This document shows, piece after piece, positions 8,621-37,692 of a DNA stretch of 64,000 bases. The stretch is taken from the sequence record NC_028927.1; one strand, 5' to 3'. The stretch is from Escherichia phage slur02. Position numbers and translations under genes: made by a program. Every line of letters begins with the position of its first letter. Position 1 is the first letter of the stretch. The notes beneath the pieces were generated by a model, which was given only the letters and a program-made list of their open reading frames with translations, was not told where the DNA came from and made no database searches.

Positions 8621-9091
8621 TTAATCATGTTTCCACACCCCATCGGTATTTGACCAAAGTCGCTGATTATCTGATCCTCGCCACAGCTTTTTAGTCGGAA
8701 GATTTTTCTCATACTTCCCATCAATAATAACATCAACATATTTAAGCATTTCTAGTTGTTTAATATCTTCAAACTTATATCCTGTCCACAACCAAATGCT
8801 TTTATTGGGATAAAGATTTTTTACTGTTTGAACCACAGAGTGAATCACATCTCTGTTATCAGGATAAAGAGGGTCACCCCCAGTTATAGTTAATCCTTCT
8901 ATATAATCATTATTCAAACATTCAATTAATTGTTCTAGTGTTTCACCAGTGAATGGAACACCATTTCTAGCATTCCATGTTGATTTATTATAACACCCTT
9001 CGCATTTATGCAAACAACCCGTAACGAAAAGAACGACCCTGCAACCAGGGCCATTCACAAAATCGCAAGGATAAAATCTATCATAATTCAT
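8621..9091 (-). CDS. nrdG: Anaerobic ribonucleotide reductase activase (radical SAM)
   Basis: 156 aa; CLHKCEGC radical-SAM cysteine motif; directly downstream of nrdD. Confidence 0.9.
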   Translation of the reverse strand: MNYDRFYPCDFVNGPGCRVVLFVTGCLHKCEGCYNKSTWNARNGVPFTGETLEQLIECLNNDYIEGLTITGGDPLYPDNRDVIHSVVQTVKNLYPNKSIWLWTGYKFEDIKQLEMLKYVDVIIDGKYEKNLPTKKLWRGSDNQRLWSNTDGVWKHD

Positions 9092-10905
9092 TGGTGTTTA
9101 ACCCTATGCATGATTTCTTTATTTTTACCGAGATTAAATCCGCGTTCGTTCGGATTTCCCAAATAACCACATGTTCTTCTTATTGTGTTCATCTTTTTAG
9201 GATCAGTTTCTCCACAGATAGAACAAACAAATCCGTTTTCAGTAGGAGTCATTTCATGGGTACTTCCGCATGTAAAACATTTATCTACTGGCATATTAAC
9301 ACCAAAATAATCTAAATGTTGTGCAGCATAATCCCAGACGGCCTCAAGCCCCTTTAAATTGTTTTTCATATCAGGAAGTTCAACATAAGAAATGTGACCA
9401 CCTGTCGCAATGAAATGATATGGCGCTTCACGAGAAATCTTTTCAAACGGAGTAATATTTTCTTCTACTGAAACATGGAAACTGTTAGTGTACCAGCCTT
9501 TATCGGTAACATCCTTTACATTTCCGTATTTTTCTGTATCGAGTTTACAGAAGCGATAACAAAGGTTTTCAGCAGGAGTAGAATATAAACTAAAAGCAAA
9601 TCCGGTTCTTTCAGTCCACTGTTTAAGATGAGCATTCATTTTAGTTAAAATTTCTCGTCCAATATCACGACCGACAAGAATATTCAATTCGTGAATACCA
9701 ATGTATCCTAAAGACACTGAACTTCTACCGTTTTTAAATAACTCAATTATGTCGTCATCAGGTTTAAGACGAACCCCGAATGCACCTTCTTGGTAAAGAA
9801 TAGGAGCAACAGTTGCTTTAACTCCTTTTAAGGAACTAATTCTACACATCAAAGCTTCAAAACATAAATCCATTCGTTCATTGAACAATTCGATAAATTT
9901 CTGTTCATTGAACTGTGTTCCAATATAAGAATCTAATGCGATACGAGGAAGATTCAGTGTTACAACACCGAGATTATTACGTCCATCAAGAATTTCATTG
10001 CCAGTCGAATCTTTCCATACGCCCAAGAAACTACGGCAACCCATTGGAGAAACAGGAACAGATGAACCAGTGATAGCTTTATTATTCTTAGCTGAAATAA
10101 TATCAGGATACATCCTTTTGCTTGCGCACTCTAGAGCAAGTTGCTTAATGTCGTAATTCGGATCGTCTTTATAAAGATTAACGCCTTCTTCAACGAACAT
10201 AACAAGCTTAGGGAAAATAGGAGTTATTCCATCACGACCAAGACCTTTAATACGATTTTTCAGAATTGCTTTCTGAATCATTCGTTCAGTCCAGTCAGTT
10301 CCCGTACCAAATGTAATTGTTACAAAAGGAGTTTGTCCGTTTGAACTAAAGAGAGTATTTACTTCATATTCATAAGCTTGGAATGCATCGTATACGTCTT
10401 TTTCTGTTTTAGATTGAGCATAATTCAGTGCATCGGCGATTTGCCATTTTTCTGCATCCTCAATATGTTTTGCATAGGTGCGTTTAACATAAGGAGAAAG
10501 TACTTTATCTACATTCGCAAAAGTCGTTCCGCCGTATTGGTGAGAAGCAACCTGTGCAGTAATTTGTGCCATAATTGCAGTAGCAACTCCAATTGATTTA
10601 GGAGTTTCAATCTGTGCATTACCAAGCTTAAATCCGTTCTCAAGCATTCCTTTTAAATCTACTAAACAGCAATTAGTAAATGGAAGAGCAGGGGAATAAT
10701 CAATATCATGGAAATGAATAATTCCGCTTTCATGCGCTTTCATAATAAAAGACGGGACCATATTTTTGGCAATGTGTTTAGACACAATACCAGCCATAAG
10801 GTCCCGTTGAGTTGGAAAAACACGAGAATCTTTATTAGCATTCTCGTTTAAAAGGTCTTTATTAGTTTTATGAATCAATCCTTCAATTTCTTTTTCAATT
10901 GTCAT
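9088..10905 (-). CDS. nrdD: Anaerobic ribonucleoside-triphosphate reductase
   Basis: 605 aa uninterrupted; C-terminal glycyl-radical motif RTCGYLG and Cys-rich zinc site CFTCGS...CSICG. Confidence 0.92.
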   Translation of the reverse strand: MTIEKEIEGLIHKTNKDLLNENANKDSRVFPTQRDLMAGIVSKHIAKNMVPSFIMKAHESGIIHFHDIDYSPALPFTNCCLVDLKGMLENGFKLGNAQIETPKSIGVATAIMAQITAQVASHQYGGTTFANVDKVLSPYVKRTYAKHIEDAEKWQIADALNYAQSKTEKDVYDAFQAYEYEVNTLFSSNGQTPFVTITFGTGTDWTERMIQKAILKNRIKGLGRDGITPIFPKLVMFVEEGVNLYKDDPNYDIKQLALECASKRMYPDIISAKNNKAITGSSVPVSPMGCRSFLGVWKDSTGNEILDGRNNLGVVTLNLPRIALDSYIGTQFNEQKFIELFNERMDLCFEALMCRISSLKGVKATVAPILYQEGAFGVRLKPDDDIIELFKNGRSSVSLGYIGIHELNILVGRDIGREILTKMNAHLKQWTERTGFAFSLYSTPAENLCYRFCKLDTEKYGNVKDVTDKGWYTNSFHVSVEENITPFEKISREAPYHFIATGGHISYVELPDMKNNLKGLEAVWDYAAQHLDYFGVNMPVDKCFTCGSTHEMTPTENGFVCSICGETDPKKMNTIRRTCGYLGNPNERGFNLGKNKEIMHRVKHQ

Positions 10906-25588: not shown

Positions 25589-26039
25589 AATCCACCACTA
25601 TTAAATCAATATCAGGAGTAAACATGTCGATTAATTTAGAAACCTTATCCCAATCGCCGCCAGCAATACCACAACCTATGCGTGGAATGTAAATTACCGG
25701 TTTAAACAAAAGGGTTTCTGCCTGTAGATTTAATTCTATCATGCAGTTTACTAAAGCACCATAATCAAGATTAGGACCTGGTTCGTATTGCGTATACAGG
25801 TTATAGCATATACCAAAACCATTAGGTTTATGTTTAAAAACAATAGACATATCGCCTAATTTATCACGAGAACCGTACTCAGTAGTGGTTTTATCTATTT
25901 CTAAAATTTTGGGATAGGCTCTTGCTAATTGACCAGCTACACCTGAACCCATAGTATGAAAACAATTGCACCCGTGCGCAATAATATTACCTTGAAGAAA
26001 TAGGGCGACAATATCGCCCTTGATATATTTTACAATCAT
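25560..26039 (-). CDS. Macro-domain-like protein (putative ADP-ribose binding/hydrolase)
   Basis: 159 aa; GDIVALF...NIIAHGCNCFHTMGSGVAGQLARAYP and later IPRIGCGIAGGDW resemble macro-domain signature blocks. Confidence 0.55.
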   Translation of the reverse strand: MIVKYIKGDIVALFLQGNIIAHGCNCFHTMGSGVAGQLARAYPKILEIDKTTTEYGSRDKLGDMSIVFKHKPNGFGICYNLYTQYEPGPNLDYGALVNCMIELNLQAETLLFKPVIYIPRIGCGIAGGDWDKVSKLIDMFTPDIDLIVVDYESALPTSV

Positions 26040-26377
26040 CTAGTACTCAATCCTCGATTATAAGAATCTACCAAACGGTCAACCATTGAATGACAAGCGG
26101 CTTTATCTTTCTCCTCCGCAACTGAACATTCTAAGGTATTCCACTTTTTAGCATATCGTTTTAACAATGTATCATTTTTGTATCTGCTTGATTTATCTCT
26201 TTCTCCGTCTTTATATGCATATATTAATTTCTGCGCAAATTCAGCTTGGCATGCTTTATTTTTCCCGCAATAATCCGCTGCAGTACGGTTTACATACTCT
26301 CTAATTTCAGTATATGATGTATCTGCTAACGCAGAAAATGAAATTAATCCTATACATAAAACCAAAATTTTAGTCAT
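26036..26377 (-). CDS. Hypothetical secreted protein
   Basis: 113 aa; signal peptide MTKILVLCIGLISFSALA. Confidence 0.5.
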   Translation of the reverse strand: MTKILVLCIGLISFSALADTSYTEIREYVNRTAADYCGKNKACQAEFAQKLIYAYKDGERDKSSRYKNDTLLKRYAKKWNTLECSVAEEKDKAACHSMVDRLVDSYNRGLSTR

Positions 26378-26915
26378 TTACTATTTCCAAAAGTTTATTA
26401 TTTTTAAGGTAATTAGCCTTTTCTAGGACTTCAGAAGCATATTTAGAACCTGCTTTAACATTCCATCCCGAATTATAAGAGGATATTGCTTTTCTTATAT
26501 CGCCCTTATGTATATTTAACCAATAAGAAAGTTCAATGTACGCCCAGGAAGCTGAATTGGACCGTTTATTCAACATTCTTTTTATTTCAGCATCGGTCAT
26601 ATTATAACCAAGTTCCTTAACTCTTGCTCGCATAGTAGGCAAATAATTTTGGAACATTCCGTAGGCGTGATGCTTTGCTTTAGATTTTAAATTAACTCCG
26701 CCAGAGCTTTCTTGCCATAAAATAGCAGCCATTATATGACCCAATCCGCTCTTGTGGATATTTTTGTGTGTTTTATATTTTCCATCCTTAGAAAATTGTT
26801 CCCCGAATTGATACGCGTAACGCATGTTATCGAGTTGGACATTACTGAAAGTATGCTCGGAGCTATGTGCCATCATTGAAATGGCCAATAGACCAGCGAG
26901 TAGTGCTTTTCTCAT
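26370..26915 (-). CDS. Secreted lytic-transglycosylase-like protein
   Basis: 181 aa; signal peptide; WQESSGG...AYGMFQ block typical of SLT domains. Confidence 0.65.
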   Translation of the reverse strand: MRKALLAGLLAISMMAHSSEHTFSNVQLDNMRYAYQFGEQFSKDGKYKTHKNIHKSGLGHIMAAILWQESSGGVNLKSKAKHHAYGMFQNYLPTMRARVKELGYNMTDAEIKRMLNKRSNSASWAYIELSYWLNIHKGDIRKAISSYNSGWNVKAGSKYASEVLEKANYLKNNKLLEIVND

Positions 26916-26922
26916 GCTTACC

Positions 26923-27384
26923 TCATTGAGTTTTAATTACTGCTTTAGAAGCCTTTCCTGGTAAACGACGACTGTTGATAATTGCCATCCTGCATTGAAG
27001 TGACGGGTCTTTGAACTTCTCATTAGGCTTACAAACCGTAAATCCAAGCCAAAGATTTCCATCTGTGATTTCTAAACGTCCAGGACGATATTCAACCCCA
27101 TCAATAAAATCCTCGTCAATGTCAGGACGCGGAGGCATACTCAGGAATTCATTAACTTCTAAAACATGGTCTTTTATTTTATGGAATAATTCAAAAACAT
27201 ATGTCTCATCAATCTCCCGTTGAATTGCACGATCAAGAAGATGTTGAGAATATTTTAGATGAAACGATGAGACTCCTGCTGCTTTTGATGCCTCACGAAT
27301 CTCATTGTTAATTTGACGAAACTCCGACTCAAAGTGACGACGAAGCTTATTTCGACGGATAAAAACTTCTGTATTGATAGTCAT
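26923..27384 (-). CDS. regB: Endoribonuclease RegB
   Basis: 153 aa matching recalled T4 RegB (MTINTEVFIRRNKLRRHFESEF...); early promoter at 27412-27440. Confidence 0.85.
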   Translation of the reverse strand: MTINTEVFIRRNKLRRHFESEFRQINNEIREASKAAGVSSFHLKYSQHLLDRAIQREIDETYVFELFHKIKDHVLEVNEFLSMPPRPDIDEDFIDGVEYRPGRLEITDGNLWLGFTVCKPNEKFKDPSLQCRMAIINSRRLPGKASKAVIKTQ

Positions 27385-27411
27385 GTTGTTCTCCTCTTAA
27401 CTGATAGAAAA

Positions 27412-27440
27412 ATTATACCACAGTCAAGAGGAAAAGTAAA
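27412..27440 (-). promoter_or_regulatory. Early promoter upstream of regB
   Basis: Minus strand TTTACT-17-TATAAT. Confidence 0.6.
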
Positions 27441-27443
27441 CAG

Positions 27444-27722
27444 TTATTCTTTAAATCTAATCAATTTATTCATAGACTTTGAAACTTCTGCACGAACCTC
27501 ATGTAAGTTTTTAAGCTGTTCAAGACGCTGCTCATAGTAAGCAATTTCATCTTCTTCGAGACAGTCCTGTGAATCTTCTTTAAGATAGCGTGCATAGTCC
27601 TGGAAAGCTTTACGGACTACTTCCTGGAAGTCATCAAGACTTTGAATTTTCTTAGGAGCGGCAGATACACGACGAGGGGCAGTATAATACTCATAACCAA
27701 ACCCTGCACTTAATTGAGCCAT
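27444..27722 (-). CDS. Hypothetical small protein
   Basis: ORF track ORF trimmed to Met 15 (TAATG junction). Confidence 0.5.
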
Positions 27723-28024
27723 TAGTATTTTTCCTCTGGTTGGAACACAGCACGGCAAGCCCACATACTTGCTTCTTTGAGTTTCGTTTTAGCAATAGTT
27801 AACTGATCGAGGCTTTCGGCGTAATTCTTCGCGAGTTCATCATCTTCACAGCTATCAAATGCTTCCCAGAATTCATCGTATAAAGCGTCAAAGATAAGTC
27901 CTAAACGAACTTCAGCGTCTTTGATAGCATTCACTTTACCGATTTTCTCTTCAGTATGCGGCTTATAACCTTTAATGTCTTCAATCATATTTGACTTCCT
28001 CACCAGTACATAAATCGTATTCAA
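27722..28024 (-). CDS. Hypothetical small acidic protein
   Basis: ORF track 100 aa; start may be the internal Met. Confidence 0.45.
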
Positions 28025-28202
28025 CTAAACGAATAGGTTCATGAATGCCATATCCCTGAACAGAAATTTCTGTAGTAGGATAAATTCCATCAATATCACC
28101 CATATTCCAGGCTTCGTTAAATTGCTGTTCGCCTGAATTACTAAACCACTCGGCGAAAGCATTTAGCACATCTTTAGAACCTTCAATAATTATCTTTGCC
28201 AT
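27981..28202 (-). CDS. Hypothetical small protein
   Basis: ORF track 73 aa. Confidence 0.4.
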   Translation of the reverse strand: MAKIIIEGSKDVLNAFAEWFSNSGEQQFNEAWNMGDIDGIYPTTEISVQGYGIHEPIRLVEYDLCTGEEVKYD

Positions 28203-28564
28203 TATAAGCTCTCAGTAAAGGTACGAGCAATAACGTCGCGCTGCTGTTCCGGAGTCAGAGAGTTAAAGCGAACTGCATAACCGGATACACGGATGGTCAG
28301 CTGCGGATATTTTTCCGGATGCTTAACTGCATCTTCCAGAGTTTCACGACGCAGAACGTTAACGTTCAGGTGTTGACCACCTTCAATTTTAACTGTAGGC
28401 TGTGGCTCAATTTCAATTTCACGAGCATGCAAACCGTAGAAAATTTCTGGGTCTACAAAAGAGTCCTCTTTAAAGGTTTTAGAGACAATAATTCGTGCTT
28501 GAATACCATCTTCAAAATAAATAGTACCTTTATGTGTGCCTTCAAGAATTTGATATGCTTTCAT
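28202..28564 (-). CDS. Autonomous glycyl-radical cofactor (GrcA/YfiD-like)
   Basis: 120 aa; C-terminus [29 protein letters not shown] is the glycyl-radical motif and matches my recollection of E. coli GrcA. Confidence 0.8.
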
Positions 28565-28571
28565 ATAAACC

Positions 28572-28898
28572 TCAATTAGAAAATAAATTTATCCAAGATT
28601 GTTCTTTAATTAAAAATGGCTCAGAATCATATGCCATTAAACTTTGGGTGATTAGTCCTTTAAAAGGTCCATCAATAAATTCCATGGTAAAATATGGAAT
28701 TTTATTCATTAACTGTGCGTTAGGAGCAGTGCACAAAACTCTGCATCCTTTGAATACACCTTTTTGTAATTTGTATTGCTTGGGATAAAATTCGCTTAAA
28801 ATGTTGTTATTTGCCAAAATTTCAAAATGATTTACCAATTTATTTTTAATAGTTTTTGGCGAAAAATAGAGATATTCGAAAAGCTGTGTGTCTGTCAT
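28572..28898 (-). CDS. Hypothetical protein
   Basis: ORF track ORF trimmed to Met 19. Confidence 0.45.
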
Positions 28899-29494
28899 TA
28901 TTGCATTCCGATTACGAAAAACTGTGGACGAGTAATACCACCAATGCAACATTTACTATTACAGCAGTAGTGTACAGTGTCAATATGGACGCTATAAATC
29001 TTATCCATATCAGGAGATTTGACAGGCTCATCAATTATATACAAAATTCGCGAAAGCGATAAACCTCTGAACTTGCTTCCTTTATTACCAATAAAACTGC
29101 GTACAGAATCAGTAAATAAACGAAAACGTATATCATCATTAGAATAACGCGAAAATTCCTTTTTAATGTTATTTGCAGAAATTTTAGCGTAAGCTGAAGT
29201 ATTAGAAAGAACAATAACTGTTCCGCCATCATACAGCCAATTAGCAGCAAAGTTAGTCACAGCAATTGATTTACCAGATTGACGTCCACCATCTATACGA
29301 AGTGTGCAGTACTGTTTAAGTAATTCTTCAAATGGCGGGATATATTCGTTTTTACAAATTTCTTCTACTCTAGCATCAGAATGGTGTGTAAAAGCATTCA
29401 TCAGGGATAGATACGGGCCAGTTAAAAATGTTCTCATATTTTCTCTCTTAATTTTTGGGCCATTCCATGGCACATGAGTTGTCCATTCCTGCAT
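28898..29494 (-). CDS. Hypothetical P-loop NTPase
   Basis: 198 aa; Walker A-like GGRQSGKS. Confidence 0.5.
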   Translation of the reverse strand: MQEWTTHVPWNGPKIKRENMRTFLTGPYLSLMNAFTHHSDARVEEICKNEYIPPFEELLKQYCTLRIDGGRQSGKSIAVTNFAANWLYDGGTVIVLSNTSAYAKISANNIKKEFSRYSNDDIRFRLFTDSVRSFIGNKGSKFRGLSLSRILYIIDEPVKSPDMDKIYSVHIDTVHYCCNSKCCIGGITRPQFFVIGMQ

Positions 29495-29572
29495 TACCCA
29501 TTACCGCGCTTTGGCTCGACCTTATCACAGGTTGGCGGGAATACCTCAAATGAGGTCCAGGCTGTTCCCATA

Positions 29573-30046
29573 TTATTTGAACGATTTAACGTACTGAATA
29601 GAACCTTTACTATTTACAAAGGCAATTTTACCATTTTTATTATACATGGTAGCAGTACGTTGATAACCATAAGTTTGTTTACCAGATTGATAACCAACTA
29701 ATGCGAAATTATCTTCGCCCATTTTATTCTGTTTAGCGCGAATGCGTTCATGACCATGTGCCATAAGAACCTTAGCATCACCGGTTGCAATGGATCGACG
29801 AGTTTTTTCATCTTCAACTGTATTAACAAAGTCGTCAAATGAATCAAATTTAGCATGAGATTTATTATACAGTTTTCCATCTACTGCATAATTATATCCC
29901 TGTACATCCATCTCAACTTCTGTACCATCATCCAATACAGCAGTGATTTTTTGACCTTTTTTAAATTTCAAAAGATCAGTAAAAGATTCAGCAATAATTT
30001 GAGAATTAATAGCTGCTTCAGTGATAAATTCTTGATATGTTTTCAT
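29573..30046 (-). CDS. Internal-protein-like capsid protein
   Basis: 157 aa; N-terminal MKTYQEFITEA resembles the T-even capsid targeting sequence cleaved by prohead protease. Confidence 0.6.
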   Translation of the reverse strand: MKTYQEFITEAAINSQIIAESFTDLLKFKKGQKITAVLDDGTEVEMDVQGYNYAVDGKLYNKSHAKFDSFDDFVNTVEDEKTRRSIATGDAKVLMAHGHERIRAKQNKMGEDNFALVGYQSGKQTYGYQRTATMYNKNGKIAFVNSKGSIQYVKSFK

Positions 30047-36670: not shown

Positions 36671-36746
36671 TGGTCGAGGCAGTAGGGATCGAACCTACGA
36701 CCTAGGACTTAGAAGGTCCTTGCTCTTCCTTCTGAGCTATGCCCCG
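36671..36746 (-). tRNA. tRNA-Arg (anticodon UCU), CCA encoded
   Basis: Manual cloverleaf: acceptor CGGGGCA/TGCCTCG, T-arm GTAGG-TTCGATC-CCTAC, anticodon loop CUUCUAA. Confidence 0.75.
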
Positions 36747-36750
36747 TAAT

Positions 36751-36826
36751 TGGGGTGACCGATGGGAGTCGAACCCATGACTACGAGAATCACAATCTCG
36801 AGTTCTACCAACTGAACTACGGCCAC
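36751..36826 (-). tRNA. tRNA-His (anticodon GUG), CCA encoded
   Basis: Manual fold: acceptor GTGGCCG/CGGTCAC, discriminator C, anticodon stem CGAGA/TCTCG with loop UUGUGAU; no G at -1. Confidence 0.6.
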
Positions 36827-36940
36827 ATTAATACCTACTCCAACAATCAAGATGTCTTCACACGAAATTAAGAGAAGAGTGATCAGTTCAACCCCTATAA
36901 TCGCGTCAAGTAGATATTAATGTGACAGTTGTCACAAATT

Positions 36941-37015
36941 TGGCGGACGTGATAGGATTCGAACCTATAACCAATCGCTTAACAGGCGATCGCTCTACCA
37001 TTGAGCTACACATCC
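36941..37015 (-). tRNA. tRNA-Asn (anticodon GUU), CCA encoded
   Basis: Manual fold: D-arm GCTC-AATGGTA-GAGC, anticodon stem ATCGC/GCGAT with loop CUGUUAA, T-arm ATAGG-TTCGAAT-CCTAT. Confidence 0.65.
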
Positions 37016-37019
37016 AAAT

Positions 37020-37106
37020 TGGTGGGGAGTGGTGGAGTCGAACCACCCGAGTCGCAATGACAATGAATTTACAGTCCACACCGCTACCTCTACGGGATAA
37101 CTCCCC
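37020..37106 (-). tRNA. tRNA-Tyr (anticodon GUA), long variable arm, CCA encoded
   Basis: Anticodon loop CUGUAAA, T-arm GGTGG-TTCGACT-CCACC, acceptor GGGGAGT/ACTCCCC. Confidence 0.6.
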
Positions 37107-37118
37107 TAATTCATAATT

Positions 37119-37193
37119 TGGTGGCCCTGGGTGGAATTGAACCACCATCTGGCGATTATGAGTCGCTTGCTTGAACCTTCCAGCTACAGGGCC
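37119..37193 (-). tRNA. tRNA with CAU anticodon (Ile in T4, or Met), CCA encoded
   Basis: Anticodon loop CUCAUAA; T-arm GGTGG-TTCAATT-CCACC; acceptor GGCCCTG/CAGGGCC. Confidence 0.65.
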
Positions 37194-37194
37194 T

Positions 37195-37270
37195 TGGTGC
37201 TGATTGACGGAATCGAACCGCCGACGTCCTCATTACAAGTGAGTTGCTCTACCTACTGAGCTAAATCAGC
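37195..37270 (-). tRNA. tRNA-Thr (anticodon UGU), CCA encoded
   Basis: Anticodon loop CUUGUAA; acceptor GCTGATT/AATCAGC. Confidence 0.7.
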
Positions 37271-37276
37271 AAAAAC

Positions 37277-37366
37277 TGGCGGAGGCGATAGGATTTGAAC
37301 CTATGAGTCGCCGGAGCGACTGCCGGTTTTCAAGACCGGTGCATTAAACCACTCTGCCACGCCTCC
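37277..37366 (-). tRNA. tRNA-Ser (anticodon UGA), long variable arm, CCA encoded
   Basis: Anticodon stem CCGGT/ACCGG with loop CUUGAAA; variable arm hairpin; acceptor GGAGGCG/CGCCTCC. Confidence 0.7.
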
Positions 37367-37368
37367 AG

Positions 37369-37442
37369 TCTCCATACAAGGATTTGAACCTTGGACCTCC
37401 TGATCCCAAATCAGGCGCTCTACCAAACTGAGCTACACGGAG
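37369..37442 (-). tRNA. tRNA-Pro (anticodon UGG), no encoded CCA
   Basis: Anticodon stem CCTGA/TCAGG with loop UUUGGGA; 3' end only 2 nt from tRNA-Ser 5' end. Confidence 0.7.
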
Positions 37443-37452
37443 TAAATTAAAT

Positions 37453-37526
<74 letters not shown>

Positions 37527-37531
37527 AAATT

Positions 37532-37618
37532 TGGTGCGAGAAGTGGGACTCGAACCCACAAGGAAATCATTCCGCAGCATTTTAAGTGCTGTGCCTTTAC
37601 CAATTTGACCATTCTCGC
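37532..37618 (-). tRNA. tRNA-Leu (anticodon UAA), long variable arm, CCA encoded
   Basis: Anticodon stem CAGCA/TGCTG with loop CUUAAAA; acceptor GCGAGAA/TTCTCGC. Confidence 0.7.
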
Positions 37619-37619
37619 G

Positions 37620-37692
37620 CTGGGAATAAAGGACTCGAACCTTTGCATCCTGGAATCAAAATCCAGTGCCTTACCAACTTGGCTAATTCCCA
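37620..37692 (-). tRNA. tRNA-Gln (anticodon UUG), no encoded CCA
   Basis: Anticodon stem CTGGA/TCCAG with loop UUUUGAU; 3' end 1 nt from tRNA-Leu 5' end. Confidence 0.7.

Follow-up and report, generated by a model that had tools for sequence, protein, structure and literature searches.

Here, we describe vs.6, a grcA-like gene in a stretch of 64,000 nucleotides from the genome of Escherichia phage slur02 (NC_028927.1), a Tequatrovirus; we refer to the whole of this stretch as the window. The gene was taken from the list of open reading frames (28202..28564, minus strand), encodes a protein of 120 residues and is the orthologue of T4 Vs.6, also called Y06I. Its TAA stop codon (28204-28202) overlaps by 1 nucleotide the ATG of the next gene, vs.5 (27981-28202), and a Shine-Dalgarno-like GAGG, read from the sequence (28570..28573, minus strand), lies 5 nucleotides upstream of its own ATG and overlaps the end of the upstream reading frame, vs.7 (28572-28952). 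Consensus scans for promoter and terminator signals around vs.6 returned counts at chance level; the tight packing of the genes suggests that vs.6 may be co-transcribed with its neighbours. Over positions 25890-29573 (3.7 kb) the window is colinear with T4 at 95.8% identity, and a Pfam match to regB is found at 26923-27384.

In T4, too, vs.6 lies between vs.5 and vs.7 (the tk-vs-regB-denV region), and the slur02 gene has both the high identity and the position that place it in the T4 vs.6 orthologue group. An earlier note on this DNA had pointed to T4 Y06I as a homologue, and it proves to be the syntenic orthologue: T4 Vs.6 (NP_049730, autonomous glycyl radical cofactor) is identical to the slur02 protein at 119 of 120 residues. 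Residue 73 is histidine in the T4 reference and arginine in slur02, as in the host, and the two genes also differ by synonymous changes at I112 and within the last three codons. At the DNA level vs.6 is 100% identical to the gene annotated as grcA in Escherichia phage slur04, and the exact protein occurs on 187 contigs of T4-like phages under the name autonomous glycyl radical cofactor. The gene and its function are thus already known, and many phage genomes have the identical protein among their annotations. What may be worth keeping is not the gene itself, which brings no novelty, but the nucleotide-level pattern within it.

The reading frame ends, as the earlier note had it, in a C-terminal glycyl-radical motif like that of GrcA/YfiD. 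Pfam PF01228 (Gly_radical) matches residues 61-101 (E=2.8e-18), and the best PDB match is Escherichia coli GrcA/YfiD (6OWR, E=8.6e-42), with residues 697-759 of PflB ranking next (E=5e-26). The best NCBIfam match is TIGR04365 'spare_glycyl' (GrcA; E=3.7e-45, residues 20-120 aligned), the family that, with InterPro IPR011140, served to define the GrcA/YfiD class for our tests of membership. Like the proteins of this class, which are of about 14 kDa, Vs.6 is a small stand-alone protein with a C-terminal glycyl-radical domain of the pyruvate formate-lyase (PFL) type. At 28280..28282 (minus strand), the codon GGT specifies G95. This is the predicted radical glycine; it belongs to an RVSGY loop and aligns with PflB G734 and GrcA G102.

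Set against E. coli GrcA (P68066; the structure 6OWR was solved by NMR), the phage protein has the same stand-alone arrangement of a disordered-type N-terminal half and a glycyl-radical domain but is 7 residues shorter. Phage residues E61-L120 correspond to GrcA E68-L127, with G95 opposite G102, and are identical at 60 of 60 positions, which bears out the earlier remark that the C-terminal half is nearly identical to the host protein. The N-terminal halves are colinear and weakly but significantly similar (14 of 39 residues identical by BLASTP, 36%, with E=1e-5 for a single comparison), so that homology to GrcA residues 1-60 is detectable. Unlike GrcA, the slur02 version is carried by a virulent phage and has a 5' half with phage codon usage. 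The C-terminal radical domain of PflB (697-759; 1H16, 2PFL) is more distant, being identical at 49 of 63 residues (78%, hand count), with the radical loop RVSGYAVRF in both. In PflB this domain is the part that oxygen cleavage removes or disables and that GrcA replaces, whereas the phage protein is not fused to a catalytic barrel. Judged by its sequence, then, Vs.6 is a PFL-type spare part and not an NrdD-type one.

What is known of these proteins comes from a small literature. In PMC8683613, YfiD and Y06I are given as the only two validated PFL spare-part proteins, and Wagner et al. (2001) are cited there for both proteins receiving a glycyl radical from the PFL activase and binding and reactivating oxygen-cleaved PFL in vitro. 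In GrcA the radical is carried by G102, and it abstracts hydrogen from C419 of PflB (PMC12338860). The structured domain of YfiD, which inserts into PFL, spans residues 61-127, and residues 1-60 are disordered and promote both binding to cleaved PFL and activation (PMC8683613).

At the nucleotide level, vs.6 of slur02 is a mosaic, as is vs.6 of T4. Codons 1-59 (28388..28564, minus strand) are of phage type, with a GC content of 0.345 and phage codon usage. From the second nucleotide of codon I60 through T117, codon alignments delimit a host-derived tract of 173 nucleotides (28214..28386, minus strand). The right-hand end of this tract is marked by a phage-type tail, codons E118-S119-L120 (28205..28213, minus strand), which reads GAG AGC TTA; the form GAG AGY YTR is common to other phage lineages, and the host has GAA AGC CTG. 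The tract differs from E. coli grcA at a single, synonymous position (I112, ATT vs ATC), while codons 1-59 share only about 45% of their nucleotides with it, and the switch to near-identity is abrupt, falling within one codon. Query positions 179-363 match grcA at 97.8% (E=4e-83) in all 5,426 complete E. coli genomes.

The two main parts of the gene differ in character as well as in identity. Identity of the 5' part to host grcA is only 38-51%, while four Tevenvirinae genera share 72-98% of it and Slopekvirus 57-61%, and among phages it is under purifying selection (ratio of non-synonymous to synonymous substitution rates, dN/dS, 0.11-0.29). GC content is 0.49 in the tract and 0.353 in the window, so that the tract ranks within the top 0.6% of 171-nucleotide segments. 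It uses CTG for 5 of 5 leucines (6% in phage usage) and CCG for 3 of 3 prolines, both codons that the phage otherwise avoids. When the window was searched by megablast against the 5,426 complete E. coli genomes, the tract was the sole stretch that matched, at grcA and at a weaker second site per genome that we took to be pflB; no other host-like DNA in the window was found on these E. coli chromosomes.

Counted over 171 nucleotides (E61-T117), the tract of the window differs from E. coli at 1 site and that of a Mosigvirus-type IMG/VR contig (L097) at 0, whereas the E. coli tract differs from those of Citrobacter amalonaticus, Klebsiella pneumoniae and Salmonella at 13, 21 and 29 sites. Because the host genera differ from one another at 13-29 sites while the window differs at 1, the tract is specifically Escherichia DNA. 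Third-position identity to E. coli is 95-98%, against about 50-65% in other phage lineages. A pflB donor is ruled out, since grcA matches at 97-100% and pflB-type sequences at 80-90%. Transfer from phage to host is ruled out by the host-like GC content and codons of the tract together with the pattern of vertical descent among the hosts, in which the identity of the E. coli grcA 5' part to Citrobacter, Klebsiella and Salmonella (88, 85 and 85%) agrees with the tract distances of 13, 21 and 29. An assembly chimera is ruled out as well, the tract being found in 641 independent phage records, T4, T2 and RB69 among them.

The tract coincides with the structured radical domain of YfiD (61-127), and the phage-type part corresponds to the disordered half (1-60). 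Its ends appear to be the limits of phage-host similarity, as homologous recombination would give. The alignments thus point to a partial gene replacement (gene conversion) of the 3' domain in an old grcA-derived phage gene, rather than to capture of a gene. Inside this otherwise host-identical tract, the T4 reference (NC_000866; L003, 5558-5920) carries the non-synonymous change R73H (CGT>CAT), while the T4 record OZ209023 is 100% identical to the E. coli tract; R73H may be a mutation of a laboratory stock.

The age of the gene bears directly on this point. Homologues of vs.6 were present in 6 of 6 T4-like genomes in 2006 (PMC1524935), and the gene is syntenic in T4, RB69, CC31 and Jiaodavirus; further homologues are found in Mosigvirus, Karamvirus, Slopekvirus, T4-like phages of Aeromonas, T5-like phages and jumbo phages. 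When the phage collection was queried with the E. coli tract, 641 records matched at 95% or more and 300 at 99% or more, many of them at 100%, including T2, wV7 and one T4 record; the RB69 tract is 98.8% identical to that of E. coli. The earlier note had read the near-identity to the host as a sign of recent capture. Recent host DNA is indeed present, in the 173-nucleotide tract only, but the capture of the gene is not recent, vs.6 being old in T4-like phages, and what was called capture is better described as recent, probably recurrent, domain-sized gene conversion.

A parallel case is offered by phages of Klebsiella. In the Jiaodavirus phages KP17 and Nispero and in contig L117, the tract lies 3-5 nucleotides from K. 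pneumoniae grcA (for which gut-metagenome contigs encoding exactly GRCA_KLEP7 served as the reference) and 20-22 nucleotides from E. coli grcA. The boundaries of the tract are the same as in the E. coli phages, and its third-position GC is host-like, at 0.60-0.63. Phage KP182 is farther out, at 11 nucleotides from the nearest K. pneumoniae allele, and matches to the K. pneumoniae tract at 95-99% occur in 106 records of Klebsiella phages. The window and KP17 differ at 21 sites in the tract, which is the distance between E. coli and K. pneumoniae themselves, yet the 5' parts of the two phages group with each other; since tract and 5' part group differently, the two halves of the gene have incongruent histories. 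These comparisons point to an independent replacement of the tract in the Jiaodavirus phages of Klebsiella, for which grcA of K. pneumoniae was the donor.

Within the T-even phages of E. coli, we compared 9 Tequatrovirus and 6 Mosigvirus sequences. Between the two genera the 5' part has 9 fixed differences and the tract has none, with similar numbers of polymorphic sites in the two regions (24 and 31, respectively; Fisher p=0.002). For the window and L097, the synonymous substitution rate (dS) falls from 0.45 in the 5' part to 0.023 in the tract. Other pairs behave in the opposite way: L097 and KAW3E185 have no synonymous difference over the 5' part but 6 within the tract, and the Klebsiella phages Nispero and KP182 have identical 5' parts but tracts that differ at 10 sites; several of the KP182 variants coincide with variants of other Klebsiella alleles. 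These patterns favour repeated conversion from different host alleles, although with 15-18 sequences the case is suggestive only. Escherichia phage Nami (L254, 77-439), also a Tequatrovirus, stands apart with 10 tract differences from E. coli, including N67H and I91S, of which the latter lies four residues ahead of the radical glycine; selection may have relaxed, the tract may be old and never converted, or the sequence may contain errors.

Could the near-identity to the host have arisen in some other way? One option is that the whole gene was captured recently from E. coli and that its N-terminal half diverged afterwards. The identical 60 C-terminal residues, the nucleotide identity of about 98-100% to E. 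coli grcA and the colinear, weakly homologous N-terminal halves would all fit such a history. It would not explain, however, why identity falls from about 100% to about 45% within one codon, why the 5' half has phage codon usage and is conserved at 72-98% among four Tevenvirinae genera with different hosts, or why the gene is syntenic across T4, RB69, CC31 and Jiaodavirus and was found in every T4-like genome of the 2006 set (PMC1524935), and we hold it to be extremely unlikely. We give almost no credence to the idea that extreme purifying selection or convergent codon usage kept the nucleotides of an anciently acquired domain identical. The domain is almost invariant in protein across hosts and phages, as that idea needs, but constraint on the amino acids is ruled out as the cause of the nucleotide identity: Enterobacter phage CYPEBC003 and contigs L103-L105 encode the same 60 residues with 29-31 nucleotide differences, all about 30 of them synonymous, and the host genera themselves differ at 13-29 of 171 nucleotides. 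The contrast in third positions between the slur02 tract and other phage lineages, and the CTG and CCG codons of the tract, speak against it too.

A harder alternative to set aside is that a single host-to-phage conversion took place per host genus and that the converted tract then spread from phage to phage among the T-even genera. T-even phages recombine readily in co-infection, and the variants of the tract are arranged star-like about the E. coli sequence, a pattern that a single recent introduction with later spread could also give; phage-phage recombination could thus have spread one converted tract. Genus-specific sequence abuts the 5' edge of the tract, however, and a partly genus-typical tail (TTG vs CTA) follows its 3' edge, and with such flanks transfer between phages would need crossovers at about the same edges. 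Moreover, pairs with identical 5' parts differ at 6-10 sites in the tract (L097 and KAW3E185, Nispero and KP182), and several KP182 variants match other Klebsiella alleles. This evidence against a single conversion followed by spread is suggestive and not decisive, and we regard that history as possible but doubtful.

What might the role of this mosaic gene be during infection? We consider it very likely that Vs.6 is a phage autonomous glycyl-radical cofactor that rescues host PflB, encoded by a mosaic gene whose tract has been overwritten by host grcA, probably repeatedly. Under low or fluctuating oxygen, host PflA would install the radical on G95, and the C-terminal domain of Vs.6 would then take the place of the oxygen-cleaved radical domain of host PflB. 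The conversion that yields acetyl-CoA and formate from pyruvate would thereby be restored after host gene expression has been shut off. Such rescue of PFL has been seen for T4 Y06I in vitro, and by extension is expected of the slur02 orthologue, identical to it at 119 of 120 residues. The formate could also feed the class III ribonucleotide reductase (RNR) of the phage, NrdD.

In evolutionary terms, an old phage-specific 5' half would be held by purifying selection, while the 173-nucleotide tract would be overwritten by homologous recombination with the grcA of the current host, its boundaries lying at the margins of the one stretch in which phage and host genes have enough similarity for recombination. 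This replacement would have occurred independently in Klebsiella Jiaodavirus and probably repeatedly within the T-even phages, and the part of the protein that must fit host PflB and PflA would stay matched to the host. We favour, with moderate confidence, the view that recurrent domain-sized conversion from the host chromosome keeps the radical domain matched to the current host, making vs.6 a host-tracking gene in virulent phages.

The earlier note had placed vs.6 alongside the anaerobic RNR system and had named NrdD as a possible target of rescue. Both genes of that system are present in the window, on the minus strand: nrdG, the class III RNR activase (8621-9091; Pfam Fer4_12 and Radical_SAM), and nrdD, the anaerobic class III RNR (9088-10905; Pfam NRDD, 5e-171, and Gly_radical, with the motif RRTCGYLG). 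They lie about 17 kb from vs.6, however, and are not part of the same unit. Is Vs.6 then a spare part or radical donor for phage NrdD, activated by NrdG? Besides the co-occurrence of the genes in one genome, an early annotation paper guessed at a role in nucleotide metabolism (PMC1524935), and the authors of PMC8683613 speculate that other glycyl-radical enzymes may have spare parts. Yet Vs.6 has no significant similarity to the radical domain of the phage's own NrdD (BLASTP E=2.7, with the RTCGYLG loop unaligned) and so lacks the NrdD-like radical domain that a hypothetical class III RNR spare part would have; its domain is 78% identical to PflB 697-759 and 100% to GrcA, and the copied tract follows the host grcA allele and not nrdD. 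On sequence an NrdD spare part is ruled out by the BLASTP result, rescue of NrdD as suggested in the earlier note loses its support, and we judge any such direct role in the RNR system very unlikely.

Somewhat different is the possibility that the phage N-terminal half re-purposes the protein, for instance as a decoy that titrates PflA or blocks PflB. That half is strongly diverged from GrcA while conserved among phages (the dN/dS of 0.11-0.29 given above), the corresponding half of YfiD controls binding and activation (PMC8683613), and the protein scores under the GrcA equivalog cutoff. Set against this is T4 Y06I, which is reported to be activated by the PFL activating enzyme and to restore cleaved PFL in vitro (Wagner 2001, as cited in PMC8683613). 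The retention of the radical glycine within an exact copy of the host radical domain also fits a working cofactor better than an inhibitor, and a decoy seems to us improbable.

Several observations nevertheless count against rescue of host PflB by a host-tracking cofactor. With TIGR04365, Vs.6 scores 153.3 bits, under the equivalog cutoff of 170 bits because its N-terminal half is divergent, and it is thus a GrcA-like relative and not a curated equivalog. Given that divergent half, the kinetics or the partner preference of the phage protein could differ from those of YfiD. A benefit of vs.6 to any phage in vivo is not documented in the literature searched. Formate supplies reducing equivalents to most characterised class III RNRs (PMC4493059), so that a metabolic link from vs.6 through formate to NrdD is plausible, but it is a link made by inference only. 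The repetition of conversion within the T-even phages rests on the 15 sequences compared. Among phage records there is no near-identical copy of a Salmonella-type grcA tract (best 87%), and the homologues of Karamvirus, Slopekvirus, T5-like and Aeromonas phages, of Pasteurellaceae type and of jumbo phages are 70-85% identical to any sampled host grcA; tracking of the host at the DNA level is therefore not universal.

A piece of a core host gene, 173 nucleotides long and up to 100% identical, sits in a virulent T-even phage, and the Klebsiella allele of that piece sits in Klebsiella phages. Should conversion be ongoing, vs.6 would be a natural and easily assayed reporter of host-to-phage recombination in lytic infection, and the phage would keep a protein-protein interface (with host PflB and PflA) matched by copying and not by mutation. 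As to why T4-like phages retain the gene, we hypothesise that it sustains PFL, and hence ATP and formate for class III RNR, in a gut where oxygen fluctuates.

The nearest known conceptual precedent is psbA of cyanophages, in which intragenic recombination between host and phage has reportedly given a mosaic auxiliary metabolic gene. The likeness is that segments are exchanged between host alleles and the copy of a host metabolic gene that the phage carries. With vs.6, by contrast, what is exchanged is a single, defined structural domain whose boundaries are fixed; the phage is a virulent coliphage and degrades the DNA of its host, and the tract is matched to the host genus in parallel in two phage lineages. 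No description of the nucleotide mosaic or of the parallel Klebsiella case was found in the literature searched, which did not include the original T4 publications, Wagner 2001 and the T4 genome review of 2003.

The more distant homologues show other states of the gene. Host-type amino acid signatures are found in some of them (LLDAVEH in Slopekvirus, NPDKYPQ in contigs of Pasteurellaceae type) and may reflect older exchanges. Four jumbo-phage contigs (L116, L118 and L119, of 345-357 kb, and L139, of 235 kb) encode GrcA-like proteins with an intact RVSGY; these genes have extremely AT-rich codons, with a third-position GC of 0.08-0.17 in the radical domain, and are old, fully ameliorated copies. 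In Salmonella T5-like phage Kenya-K44 (L089, 158-788) and Aeromonas phage avDM5 (L090, 226-1345), the grcA homologue lies inside or adjoining a tRNA cluster, unlike in the T-even phages.

A few records are of unusual provenance. PV654520, 'Pseudomonas phage vB_PSGBLB0006' (142 kb), is labelled as a Pseudomonas aeruginosa phage and carries the E. coli grcA tract at 99.4%, which is likely due to host mislabelling or contamination. Some 'viral' contigs of IMG/VR carry genes of bacterial type: L120 has a host-type grcA nearest to that of Yersinia (91%), and L160-L170 consist of pflB 3' ends. Such contigs are probably host DNA that was misclassified, or the flanks of prophages. In Klebsiella sp. 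WOUb02, a full-length grcA of host type is annotated on 'plasmid unnamed4' (L024, 275 kb), an unusual place for a core chromosomal gene.

Elsewhere in the window, a reading frame of 100 residues (27722-28024, minus strand), two genes downstream of vs.6 in the position of T4 vs.4, matches the Acb2/Tad1 hairpin domain (Pfam PF24729, E=1.2e-19). This is a family of phage anti-CBASS/anti-Thoeris nucleotide sponges, and vs.6 therefore lies near an anti-defence gene. Farther away, at 36671-37692 (minus strand), are 11 tRNA genes (Arg-tct, His, Asn, Tyr, Met, Thr, Ser, Pro, Gly, Leu-taa and Gln). Parts of this cluster (about 36955-37444), and not vs.6, are 80-90% identical to sequences on some 200 E. 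coli plasmids, mostly non-mobilizable and about 90-140 kb in size, which may be phage-plasmids with related tRNA genes.

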